This document shows, piece by piece, positions 59 through 1,446 of a stretch of 1,446 nt of DNA. The stretch lies in NCBI GenBank assembly GCA_000004985.1, contig GG739421.1. The stretch is one strand, 5' to 3'. The DNA is from Naegleria gruberi. Lineage: Eukaryota. The notes below the pieces were generated by a model that worked only from the letters and a program-made list of their open reading frames with translations, did no database searches and was not told the origin of the DNA. The translations under genes and the position numbers were made by a program. Every line of letters starts with the position of its first letter. The stretch's first letter is position 1.

Positions 59-1078
59 TCATTTTAAATAATCAATTAAATTTAAAATAATTAAATTTTG
101 ATTATTTAAAGAAATTAAAATTTCATTTTTAGAAAATTGAATAAAATCATTAATATAATAATTTAAATCTAATTTAAATTTTAAAGTTCCATCAATATTC
201 CAAATAAAAATAAAATGATTACAAATTCCAATAATAAATTGATTAATAAATTTAATATTTTGACATTTACTTGAAATTATAATTTTAATTGGTTTACTTA
301 AATTATGAATTGAAAATAAAGTTAAATAATTAATTTCTCTACTTGAATGAATTAACCAATTATTATATTCATCTGTTGATATACTATTTATAGTAATATT
401 ATTTTCTAAAAATGGAAAATATTCATTTTCAATTATTAAATCTAAATTTAAAATTTTAATTTTATATAAACATGTAATAAATAATTTAGAATTAATTAAA
501 TTTATATTTAAAATACTTGAATCTAATTTAATTGATTTTAATAAATTTAAATCTTGATCTACCATATATAGAAATCCATTATCAAATCCAATATATAAAT
601 TATTATTAATAAAATTAATACAATTAATTATTTTTCCATTATTAATTTCATCCATATATAAATTTGGTGATAAAATTATTGATTTTTCTATATTTGTTAA
701 TAAATCTTCAATTTTAAATATTTTAATAAAATTACTTGTACAAATATAGATTGTATCTAAATTATTAATTATATTTAAAATTGGAAATGTATCTATTTTT
801 ATACTTGTTATTAATTCTAATTTTAAATTATAAATTTTAACTTGTCCAAAATCATTTCCAATTAAAATATATTCCATATTATTATTATTACTAGATATGG
901 TAGTATTATTATTAGTATCATTGGTATCATTATCATTAATTATTGTAGATATTGGTATATTCTTAATTTTTATCATACAAGTTGCTCTGATAGGTCTTTT
1001 TAATTCATCTTTTTGTATTTGATAAATTTCTTCTCTTGATGGATGAGAAAATTCTTGATTAAAAATTAGGCTTGTCAT
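59..1078 (-). CDS. Hypothetical Asn/Ile-rich protein, 339 aa; beta-propeller (WD40-like) repeat architecture suspected; intronless eukaryote-style gene. Coordinates include the TGA stop at 59-61.
   Basis: Single uninterrupted 340-codon frame (ATG at 1076-1078 as rev-comp cat; TGA at 59-61) in DNA where TAA/TAG/TGA should occur by chance about every 9-10 codons, so an open frame this long is essentially impossible without selection. It starts at the first ATG after an in-frame TAA 17 codons upstream. Codon usage is consistently AT-biased (AAT Asn, AAA Lys, AGA Arg, GGA Gly, CAA Gln, TGG Trp). The protein has repeated 'hydrophobic strand + G-x-D/N-G turn' units, for example GNDFGQVKIYNL (824-859), LYIGFDNGFLYMVD (557-598) and IWNIDGTLKFKL (170-205), about 7 units in all. 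No homology search was possible, so the fold and function assignment is inference. Confidence 0.8.
   Translation of the reverse strand: MTSLIFNQEFSHPSREEIYQIQKDELKRPIRATCMIKIKNIPISTIINDNDTNDTNNNTTISSNNNNMEYILIGNDFGQVKIYNLKLELITSIKIDTFPILNIINNLDTIYICTSNFIKIFKIEDLLTNIEKSIILSPNLYMDEINNGKIINCINFINNNLYIGFDNGFLYMVDQDLNLLKSIKLDSSILNINLINSKLFITCLYKIKILNLDLIIENEYFPFLENNITINSISTDEYNNWLIHSSREINYLTLFSIHNLSKPIKIIISSKCQNIKFINQFIIGICNHFIFIWNIDGTLKFKLDLNYYINDFIQFSKNEILISLNNQNLIILNLIDYLK
878..937 (-). repeat. In-frame low-complexity tract encoding NDNDTNDTNNNTTISSNNNN (residues 48-67). It includes a 9-bp tandem unit (plus strand AGTATCATT / GGTATCATT / ATCATT, 914-937) encoding (N-D-T)x2.7.
   Basis: Direct reading of the codons gives runs of AAT (Asn), ACT/ACC (Thr) and GAT (Asp). 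The plus-strand sequence agtatcatt-ggtatcatt-atcatt is a tandem 9-mer. Such tracts are typical of AT-rich eukaryotes (Dictyostelium, Plasmodium). Confidence 0.7.
1061..1075. repeat. Direct repeat copy A: AAAAATTAGGCTTGT (plus strand). It overlaps the start of the CDS (gene strand ATG-ACAAGCCTAATTTTT, codons T-S-L-I-F).
   Basis: 15-nt match (14/15 identities) with 1225-1239. The shared core TAGGCTTGT contains 4 G/C in a background of roughly 10% G+C, so a chance recurrence is unlikely. Confidence 0.6.
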
Positions 1079-1097
1079 ATCTTGAAGTATAAAGTTA

Positions 1098-1115
1098 ATG
1101 ATGATGGTGATGATA
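1098..1115. repeat. Imperfect trinucleotide tract ATG-ATG-ATG-GTG-ATG-ATA, i.e. (GAT)2-GGT-(GAT)2 in the other phase.
   Basis: Seen directly in the sequence. It reads (ATC/ACC)n on the gene strand. Confidence 0.5.
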
Positions 1116-1139
1116 TATTGATGTATTTAATGATCACTA

Positions 1140-1166
1140 GGTGGTGGTGATATTGATGATGAAAAT
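1140..1166. repeat. Imperfect trinucleotide tract (GGT)3-GAT-ATT-(GAT)2-GAA-AAT.
   Basis: Seen directly in the sequence. It is related to the tract at 1098-1115 and to TGATGATGAC at 1189-1198. The three tracts are in different phases and interrupted by stops, so they are not a continuous coding region. Confidence 0.5.
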
Positions 1167-1175
1167 ATTTTAGGC

Positions 1176-1211
1176 TTTTCCGAAGGCTTGATGATGACAA
1201 CTATCGGAAGA
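1176..1211. other. Candidate hairpin: stem TTCCGA (1178-1183) / TCGGAA (1204-1209), 6 bp perfect with 4 G:C. It extends to 8 bp with one G-U wobble (1177 pairing with 1210) and a T-A pair (1176 with 1211). Loop about 20 nt (1184-1203) containing AGGCTTGATGATGACAACTA.
   Basis: Inverted repeat read directly from the sequence. A GC-containing 6-mer inverted repeat is uncommon in DNA this AT-rich, but one such hit in 1.4 kb is not strongly significant. Confidence 0.25.
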
Positions 1212-1224
1212 TTTTAACAAGAGA

Positions 1225-1239
1225 AAAAACTAGGCTTGT
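1225..1239. repeat. Direct repeat copy B: AAAAACTAGGCTTGT (plus strand), 164 bp upstream (gene sense) of copy A.
   Basis: See copy A. On the gene strand it reads GCACAAGCCTAGTTTTTT. There is no ATG in front of it and stops follow in all frames, so it is non-coding. Confidence 0.6.
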
Positions 1240-1446
1240 GCTAATATTTTTTTTTGAAATTTGAAAAATAGAGAAATCATAACAATCATGTGATAAGATA
1301 TTGCCAATTTAATATGTTACTATAATAGATTTAGTATTTATTTTAGAATAATCGAAATGGATATTTATTTTTATTATTTACATTAAATATACCTTCAAGT
1401 ATTTACAAATATTGAATAATATGTTCAATAATTTCATTTGGAAGTA

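Follow-up and report, generated by a model that had tools for sequence, protein, structure and literature searches.

A clustered AAGCCT word in a G+C-rich island at the 5' end of a Naegleria gruberi WD40-propeller gene: a candidate gene-control region

Eukaryotes with very A+T-rich genomes, Dictyostelium and Plasmodium among them, have regulatory sites that stand out as short G/C-containing words set in A+T-rich spacers, and sites such as the GBF G-box, C,A-rich elements and ApiAP2 sites form homotypic clusters in their A+T-rich promoters. Within a homotypic cluster, transcription-factor sites are as a rule independent of orientation. Here we analysed a stretch of 1,446 nucleotides of Naegleria gruberi DNA (contig GG739421.1; hereafter the window), in which a G/C-containing word, AAGCCT, is likewise repeated in the roughly 170 bp upstream of a start codon, within an island of raised G+C that also holds a second repeated word and a run, CACCACCACC, resembling the C,A-rich elements. 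Unlike the Dictyostelium and Plasmodium sites, none of which it matches, AAGCCT(A) occurs in a single orientation and has one copy inside coding sequence. The island is also like motif systems of unstructured, G-poor 5' leaders, in that its words are sense-only, its sequence is C-rich with no upstream ATG and low predicted structure, and the AAGCCT cluster extends into the first codons; unlike them, it matches no described RNA family or motif, and its depletion of ATG is not significant. The island further resembles decayed microsatellites and short dispersed duplications, having both a 15-nt direct repeat and imperfect triplet runs of (ATC)n/(CAC)n, although Tandem Repeats Finder (TRF) detects no array and the hexamer sits in four different contexts.

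The island lies in an intergenic spacer of 324 bp (1079-1402) between two genes on the same strand:

59..1078, minus strand: WD40-type beta-propeller gene, 339 aa, seven-bladed, intronless, stop codon TGA at 59-61
1079..1241, minus strand: non-coding G+C-rich island, 163 bp, from the distal motif copy to the ATG
1403..1446, minus strand: probable 3' end of the upstream neighbour gene, ...LPNEIIEHIIQYL and then TAA (1405-1403)

Homologues of the propeller open reading frame (ORF) were found in Naegleria fowleri and in an environmental eukaryote (E values of 6e-21 and 8e-19). An exhaustive HMMER scan yielded only three hits, two of which were real homologues; a profile search for further ones added nothing, and no Dictyostelium or Plasmodium homologue was returned by either a word-indexed protein search or the HMMER scan. 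The ORF and its full-length homologues, of 342 and 415 aa, align from the first methionine, and the conserved block begins about 10 residues in. The ORF and start codon proposed in the first-pass annotation are thus genuine, and the flank carrying the motif is truly 5' of the gene. The A+T bias of the genome is among the strongest seen, with 4% G+C at coding third positions: in the WD40 ORF, where GC3 is 4%, third-position G+C is 12% in the first 60 codons and 0-3% thereafter, glycine is encoded by GGA only, unlike in Dictyostelium discoideum, and third-position G+C in the frame of the neighbouring gene is 0.

Against this background, the word AAGCCT (AGGCTT on the plus strand) occurs exactly four times in the window, counting both strands, at the places first reported for it and always in the sense orientation of the WD40 gene:

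1068..1073, minus strand: AAGCCT copy 1, +6..+11 from the A of the ATG
1172..1177, minus strand: AAGCCT copy 2 (AAGCCTA), -99..-94 from the ATG
1184..1189, minus strand: AAGCCT copy 3 (CAAGCCTT), -111..-106 from the ATG
1232..1237, minus strand: AAGCCT copy 4 (ACAAGCCTA), -159..-154 from the ATG, at the distal edge of the island

On the plus strand, three of the four carry the trailing G that had been noted (those at 1068, 1184 and 1232, not 1172), and a leading T (TAGGCTT) is found at 1067, 1171 and 1231. The earlier view that this cluster is non-random held up: four copies were observed against 0.06 expected, and none of 200 dinucleotide-preserving shuffles of the window reached four. The base composition on which that view had drawn, about 6% each of G and C, was slightly off (measured, 8.9% G and 7.7% C). 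Local G+C over 1079-1260 is 29.7%, above the rest of the window; when 1060-1260 alone was shuffled at its local composition, four copies of AGGCTT were reached in none of 5,000 dinucleotide shuffles, and any hexamer with at least three G/C reached four copies in 3 of 5,000, for a p value of about 6e-4 allowing for the choice of word. That the motif keeps to the start codon and its 5' flank is essentially correct, with three copies 94-159 nt upstream of the ATG and the whole cluster spanning -159 to +11, but copy 1 spares the ATG itself (1078-1076) and covers codons 2-4.

Copy 1 runs from the third position of codon 2 through codon 3 to the second position of codon 4, within ACA AGC CTA (Thr-Ser-Leu). 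Since AGC accounts for only 1 of the 24 serine codons in the ORF and CTA for 2 of the 39 leucine codons (the other 37 being TTA), this copy lies in codons that the gene otherwise avoids, and the residues aligned to its Ser-Leu are not conserved in the homologues. Taken from the sequence, these codons may point to constraint at the nucleotide level on the intragenic copy, and we counted them in favour of a regulatory role.

The surrounding island is compositionally distinct, with 27-37% G+C in 60-nt windows compared with 5-20% over most of the ORF and 5% in the 3' flank, and it is 6-8 times richer in G+C than the third-codon sites of the WD40 gene. Its gene strand is C-rich and G-poor, with a strong C>G skew (22% C versus 7.7% G). 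Stops interrupt all six frames, and G+C by codon phase is flat (0.35/0.31/0.31, compared with 0.19/0.20/0.04 in the ORF). The island, with stops in every frame and no codon-phase periodicity of G+C, is non-coding.

These observations leave it highly improbable that the island is an upstream exon or N-terminal extension of the propeller gene in which AAGCCT is read as Ser-Leu (AGC-CTN), including the version in which an F-box-like exon, LPNEIIEHIIQY, at the end of the window is joined to the propeller to give an F-box/WD40 protein. Such a protein would take its 13-residue F-box-like start from the same strand, 324 nt upstream; there is a possible GT donor at 1406-1405 of that segment and, by reading of the sequence, a TATTAG acceptor of matching phase just before copy 4. 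The three upstream copies do fall in one frame as AGC-CTN, and the structural neighbours of the product include F-box/WD40 proteins. Yet each frame is interrupted by stops, and among the GT/AG combinations traced by hand on the gene strand across 1079-1446, none opened a path into the ORF frame without an 18-nt intron. Besides their flat codon-phase G+C, the candidate frames abound in codons ending in C or G that are never used in the ORF, and the homologues, including that at the orthologous locus L001, lack an F-box and share their first methionine with the ORF. The weak F-box-like match at the neighbour's 3' end (profile positions 4-16, about 12 bits, E value of about 0.1) covers only positions 4-16/18 of a domain that is about 45 residues when complete, scores well below the cut-offs of 20.5-24.3 bits, and in Pfam scans of five candidate joins never ran past residue 13-15. 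Interrupted frames, the want of an open splice path and F-box-free homologues thus largely refute an upstream exon or F-box fusion. A plus-strand gene running through the island, suggested by the protein-like GGGDIDDENILGFSEGLMMTTIGRF, was also rejected, having no start codon, 26 codons and glycine codons unlike those of the ORF.

Part of the island is bracketed by a dispersed direct repeat, whose arms hold AAGCCT copies 1 and 4:

1061..1075, minus strand: proximal arm of the 15-nt direct repeat, ACAAGCCTAATTTTT on the gene strand
1225..1239, minus strand: distal arm of the 15-nt direct repeat, ACAAGCCTAGTTTTT on the gene strand

The arms match at 14 of 15 positions (93%) and lie 164 nt apart; a pair with at least 14 of 15 matches and at least four matched G/C arose in 4 of 400 region-preserving shuffles. 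Because these repeats flank 149 bp, and because raised G+C is typical of functional RNAs in A+T-rich genomes, the island might be a short insert with a 15-nt target-site duplication or an unannotated small RNA gene, for example a snoRNA, but we consider either very unlikely. Several UGAUGA (box C-like) words on the plus strand coincide with weak C/D-snoRNA hits, but no CUGA box D follows them on that strand. An Rfam scan gave no hit at the gathering score, its hits being far under it (12-19 bits versus 39-70, with E values of at least 2; 19 versus 45 bits for the best), ARAGORN found no tRNA, and folding of the island was no better than that of shuffles on either strand (z = -1.4 and -1.0, not significant). 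A small RNA gene was rejected on these grounds, with a best Rfam hit of 19 bits, an empty ARAGORN search and folds not above shuffles. Insertion with target-site duplication was rejected, since the validated start codon of the WD40 gene would fall within the supposed insert, which also has no terminal inverted repeats and no poly(A) tail distinct from the repeat itself.

The hexamer is accompanied by a second word, CATCATCA, and by an inverted repeat:

1099..1106, minus strand: CATCATCA word 1, within ATCATCACCATCATCATT, an imperfect (ATC)n run
1154..1161, minus strand: CATCATCA word 2, TTTTCATCATCAA, followed by CACCACCACC at 1140-1149
1189..1196, minus strand: CATCATCA word 3, TTGTCATCATCAA, directly upstream of AAGCCT copy 3
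1178..1209: 6-bp inverted repeat, TTCCGA (1178-1183) and TCGGAA (1204-1209), bracketing AAGCCT copy 3

Three exact copies of CATCATCA and nine one-mismatch matches occur in the island, an enrichment that none of 200 shuffles reached. Word 3 overlaps AAGCCT copy 3 by a single base (the shared A at 1189), and the three words are co-oriented with AAGCCT, placing all seven on the sense strand. A second, co-oriented word enriched in the same island has the usual look of a composite regulatory module, and we counted this, too, in favour of a putative regulatory role. The inverted repeat holds two of the three CpG dinucleotides of the window and forms a local stem in both minimum-free-energy folds, whose z-scores are not significant.

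We tentatively favour the reading in which the four AAGCCT(A) words belong to a cis-regulatory region of the WD40-propeller gene and are bound as a homotypic cluster. The region would comprise the core or proximal promoter and the 5' leader within the 324-bp spacer, and its 163-bp patch of 30-37% G+C would have been kept by selection under strong A+T pressure. AAGCCT(A) would be recognised by a single sequence-specific factor that binds at several copies and acts together with the second word, CATCATCA / CACCACC; binding of this factor, which is taken to act on DNA, would set transcription of the WD40 gene. The proposal of a repeated cis-regulatory site in the first-pass annotation thus keeps its footing as to the real start codon, the non-coding upstream location and the non-random cluster, and the site itself stays a candidate. 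As the copies all point one way and one of them lies in codons 2-4, there is room for a transcript-level reading as well.

Two observations run against the promoter reading. All four AAGCCT and all three CATCATCA words lie on one strand of an island with a strong C>G skew, and an RNA-level or mutational explanation fits this strandedness at least as well. Part of the island's G+C, moreover, comes from imperfect (ATC)n/(CAC)n runs, which replication slippage could make without any function.

At the RNA level, the island would be a transcribed 5' leader whose AAGCCUA and CAUCAUCA words are recognised in the mRNA by the translation machinery or by an RNA-binding protein, so that translation, stability or localisation is controlled and not transcription. 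We regard this as rather unlikely, although several features suit it. All seven repeated words are on the sense strand, which in the island is C-rich and G-poor (22% versus 7.7%), and one copy lies in rare codons of the coding sequence (codons 2-4), where a promoter site is less expected. The predicted leader is essentially unstructured (z = -1.4), as fits an accessible leader, and the sense strand has no ATG for 201 nt upstream of the start codon; however, 14% of shuffles are likewise free of ATG, so the stretch is not significant. Against an RNA element, too, many protists with compact genomes have leaders of just a few nucleotides, and with a leader so short three of the four copies would lie outside the transcript, and no known RNA motif in Rfam corresponds to the word. 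More doubtful still is a broader version, in which four AAGCCUA and three CAUCAUCA words in an unstructured, C-rich and G-poor 5' leader would make up a strand-specific, transcript-read module typical of gene starts in an ultra-A+T-rich lineage, a new post-transcriptional or initiation signal that would extend into the first codons and override a near-absolute choice of A/T-ending codons. Were this true, the word would mark a new signal rather than the promoter of one gene.

The mutational alternative, to which we likewise give a rather low probability, holds that the island is decayed simple sequence, in which slippage left (ATC)n/(CAC)n runs and a minor dispersed duplication gave the 15-nt repeat; the hexamer would be a remnant of this copying, and biased gene conversion centred on the promoter may have raised G+C. 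Much of the island does consist of imperfect triplet runs, ATCATCACCATCATCATT and TCATCATCAATATCACCACCACC, and two of the four AAGCCT copies belong to the arms of one direct repeat. Third-position G+C, 12% over the first 60 codons and 0-3% beyond them, also falls from 5' to 3', a gradient that recombination or gene conversion concentrated near the 5' end would be expected to leave. TRF, however, sees no array in the island, and copies 2 and 3 share only the hexamer with each other and with copies 1 and 4. To share the hexamer and nothing else, the copies would need to have arisen independently three or more times, or to have decayed strongly on either side of a core that was preserved, and such a core would itself imply constraint. 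Gene conversion is strand-symmetric and does not account for the C>G skew, and under A+T pressure that leaves a GC3 of 4%, unconstrained G/C should vanish quickly.

Duplication in tandem fared no better. The footprint suggested at first, a tandemly duplicated unit of 12-16 nt, is not borne out: TRF at a minimum score of 30 reported no array in 1060-1260 and nothing at all between 945 and 1361, and copies 2 and 3, whose starts are 12 nt apart, have only the hexamer in common. The dispersed 15-nt direct repeat is the only repeat actually present. It had, together with a by-eye likeness between LVIIKYINISS and MIKIKNIPIST, suggested a 164-nt tandem duplication; this was rejected, as in-register identity was 57 of 165 (expected, 49.7 +/- 5.5) and local alignment yielded the 15-mer only.

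Relatives that might carry the word are few. No close relative was found by exact 27-mer search of viral, metagenome and GTDB genome collections or by protein-guided locus search of metagenome and viral contigs, and a word-indexed protein search, like exact look-ups of the ORF product and of its versions from two shorter starts, gave no match. At the one readable orthologous locus, L001, AAGCCT is absent upstream, but at about 31% protein identity this locus is too distant to count against the word; its G+C, judged by eye, is about 40%. A literature search for AAGCCT returned only primer noise, and to our knowledge no nameable transcription-factor site matches it.

As far as sequence can indicate, the island is most likely an ordinary gene-control region. 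On present evidence it amounts to a single promoter-like region ahead of a single gene, familiar in its general kind, and it settles or opens no standing question. If the word is a genuine regulatory site, it would offer a handle on gene control in this A+T-biased genome, in which each G/C retained outside codons is informative, so that such islands could serve to read promoters from sequence.

The product of the WD40 gene was also compared by structure. An AF2 model (pLDDT 78) has WD40 propellers as its structural neighbours, F-box/WD40 proteins among them. Of the top PDB hits, human THOC6 (7apk_F) superposed best at full length (TMq 0.66 over 303 columns, rmsd 3.1), many WD40 proteins scoring similarly and one hit reaching TMq 0.69 at an rmsd of 18. 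THOC6 was not listed at an E value of 1 or below in a profile search of PDB sequences; hhalign against an approximate THOC6 sequence gave a probability of 61% (E value of 8e-5) and a colinear alignment over 238 columns.

AGGCTT occurs on the plus strand of the window at 1068, 1172, 1184 and 1232 (AAGCCT on the gene strand), with no further copy when both strands were scanned, and the non-randomness claimed in the first-pass annotation held: dinucleotide shuffles of the window (1,446 nt, 16.5% G+C; G 8.9%, C 7.7%) gave an expectation of 0.06 copies, and four were reached in 0 of 200. Because the surrounding region is locally G+C-richer and the word had been picked after being seen, we repeated the test more strictly on 5,000 dinucleotide shuffles of 1060-1260 alone; AGGCTT reached four copies in none, and a hexamer of any kind containing three or more G/C did so in three. 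The trailing G was indeed present on three copies (1068, 1184 and 1232) and a leading T on three (1067, 1171 and 1231), while an extended gene-strand word, (A/C)AAGCCTA with an A/T run after it, was found in three of the four. The cluster is thereby confirmed as real and statistically sound, spanning -159 to +11 around the validated start codon with all words co-oriented.

The minus-strand ORF at 59-1078 (339 aa) is a real gene. Its G+C content by codon position (0.19/0.20/0.04) is periodic and its codon usage extreme (Asn always AAT, Leu TTA in 37 of 39, Gly always GGA), with third-position G+C of 4% overall but 12% over the first 60 codons and 0-3% afterwards. Dictyostelium favours a Gly codon other than GGA. 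A word-indexed protein search returned no match; HMMER, run exhaustively against 1.84 billion representatives, revealed two homologues (E = 6e-21 and 8e-19), the only ones detectable in that scan, whose clusters include hypothetical proteins from Naegleria fowleri as well as one environmental eukaryote. No Dictyostelium or Plasmodium homologue appeared in either search, which, with the Gly codon choice, makes either genus an improbable source of the DNA. In the alignment, the full-length homologues, of 342 aa and 415 aa, begin at the ORF's own first residue, with the first block of conservation (HPSREEIYQIQK / APTSLDILKLQQ / HPNGQDILQMQK) about 10 residues further on; ATG 1078-1076 is therefore the true start, and the gene is intronless. 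The stop is TGA, not TAA, and TAA has its standard meaning in the source eukaryote.

AlphaFold confidently modelled the ORF as a seven-bladed propeller (pLDDT 78), for which Foldseek returned WD40 proteins. Among solved structures, the best full-length superposition was on human THOC6 (7apk_F; TMq 0.66, rmsd 3.1), one other match having a higher TMq but an rmsd of 18. Profile comparison with an approximate THOC6 sequence was colinear but weak (probability 61%), and THOC6 was absent from the matches in a profile search of PDB sequences. We regard the ORF as THOC6-like as a lead only, orthology being plausible but unproven. An imperfect (TAT)n / 24-nt repeat detected by TRF at 877-944 (plus strand; residues about 45-67) encodes an Asn/Thr/Asp-rich insert, NDNDTNDTNNNTTISSNNNN, which is missing from the homologues, was modelled at pLDDT <50 and is a low-complexity expansion within the first blade region.

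Between the ATG and the distal motif copy lies an island (1079-1241) of 27-37% G+C, compared with 14.5% in the ORF, 4% at its third positions and 5% in the 3' flank. A coding exon is unlikely, given stops in all six frames, G+C that is flat over the three codon phases (0.35/0.31/0.31) and candidate frames rich in C/G-ending codons never used by the ORF. A small RNA is likewise unlikely: the best Rfam matches reached 12-19 bits, where gathering scores are 39-70, no tRNA was found, and folding was not better than in shuffles on either strand (z = -1.4, -1.0). Insertion was also tested and judged unlikely. Nor is the island a tandem array, and the earlier alternative, tandem duplication of a roughly 12-16 nt unit, is not supported. 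Besides the hexamer, it contains the following elements.

1140-1149, gene strand: CACCACCACC run
1096-1115, gene strand: imperfect (ATC)n run
1178-1183 and 1204-1209: 6-bp inverted repeat TTCCGA/TCGGAA, 20 nt between arms, enclosing the third motif copy from the start codon

The inverted repeat holds two of the window's only three CpG and gave no significant folding signal. Another word, CATCATCA, has three exact copies, all on the gene strand and inside the island (1096-1196), two of them within a 13-nt repeat, TT(T/G)TCATCATCAA; its nine one-mismatch matches were reached in no shuffle. Since CATCATCA, CACCACCACC and the imperfect (ATC)n run, all confined to the island, lie on the gene strand, that strand of the island is skewed (C 22% versus G 7.7%).

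The most probable reading of the motif region is a cis-regulatory region of an ordinary kind, with a putative factor. Selection would maintain the island as the promoter-proximal region and/or 5' leader of the propeller gene, with AAGCCTA as the putative repeated recognition site of one factor; action at the DNA level via a transcription factor is our tentative reading of the sequence pattern. The main rival, in which the same architecture is read on RNA, is favoured by the shared orientation of all seven words, by the C-over-G skew of the gene strand and by one copy lying within coding sequence, but is weakened by the unmapped transcription start, and we consider it improbable. We attach a similarly low likelihood to a non-functional origin through triplet runs left by slippage, a dispersed duplication of small size and G+C raised by gene conversion, which fits the 5'-to-3' fall in third-position G+C and accounts well for CATCATCA but poorly for the hexamer, because the latter recurs in four different contexts. 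The single orthologous locus compared has no AAGCCT upstream, but comes from a distant organism of ordinary base composition and is uninformative.

The intragenic copy spans codons 2-4 (ACA AGC CTA), which include the only AGC among 24 Ser codons and one of two CTA among 39 Leu codons; the aligned residues are not conserved among homologues. Nucleotides rather than amino acids seem to have been kept here, or the copy seems to lie in a recently copied repeat arm: the first and fourth copies each form the core of one arm of a 15-nt direct repeat, ACAAGCCTA(A/G)TTTTT, the arms lying 164 nt apart, and a pair as good arose in 4 of 400 region-preserving shuffles. Upstream of the start, no sense-strand ATG occurs for 201 nt, as in 14% of shuffles. 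Directly distal to the island, 1242-1262 (plus strand) carries TAATAT, then T9, which the gene strand reads as A9, together with a TTTCAAA repeat, and could be a TATA-like or initiator region for either strand.

At the right end of the window, the gene strand reads ...LPNEIIEHIIQYL and then TAA at 1405-1403, with zero third-position G+C in that frame. This segment (1403-1446, minus strand) looks like the 3' end of an upstream neighbour, leaving a 324-bp spacer (1079-1402). It also resembles the first half of an F-box in textbook form (positions 4-16 of Pfam F-box-like, ~12 bits, E ~0.1), followed by a GT at 1406-1405. We found no open splice path from it to the propeller ORF, whose homologues are without an F-box. 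The F-box-like start sits at an apparent protein C-terminus, on the same strand and 324 nt upstream of the propeller gene.
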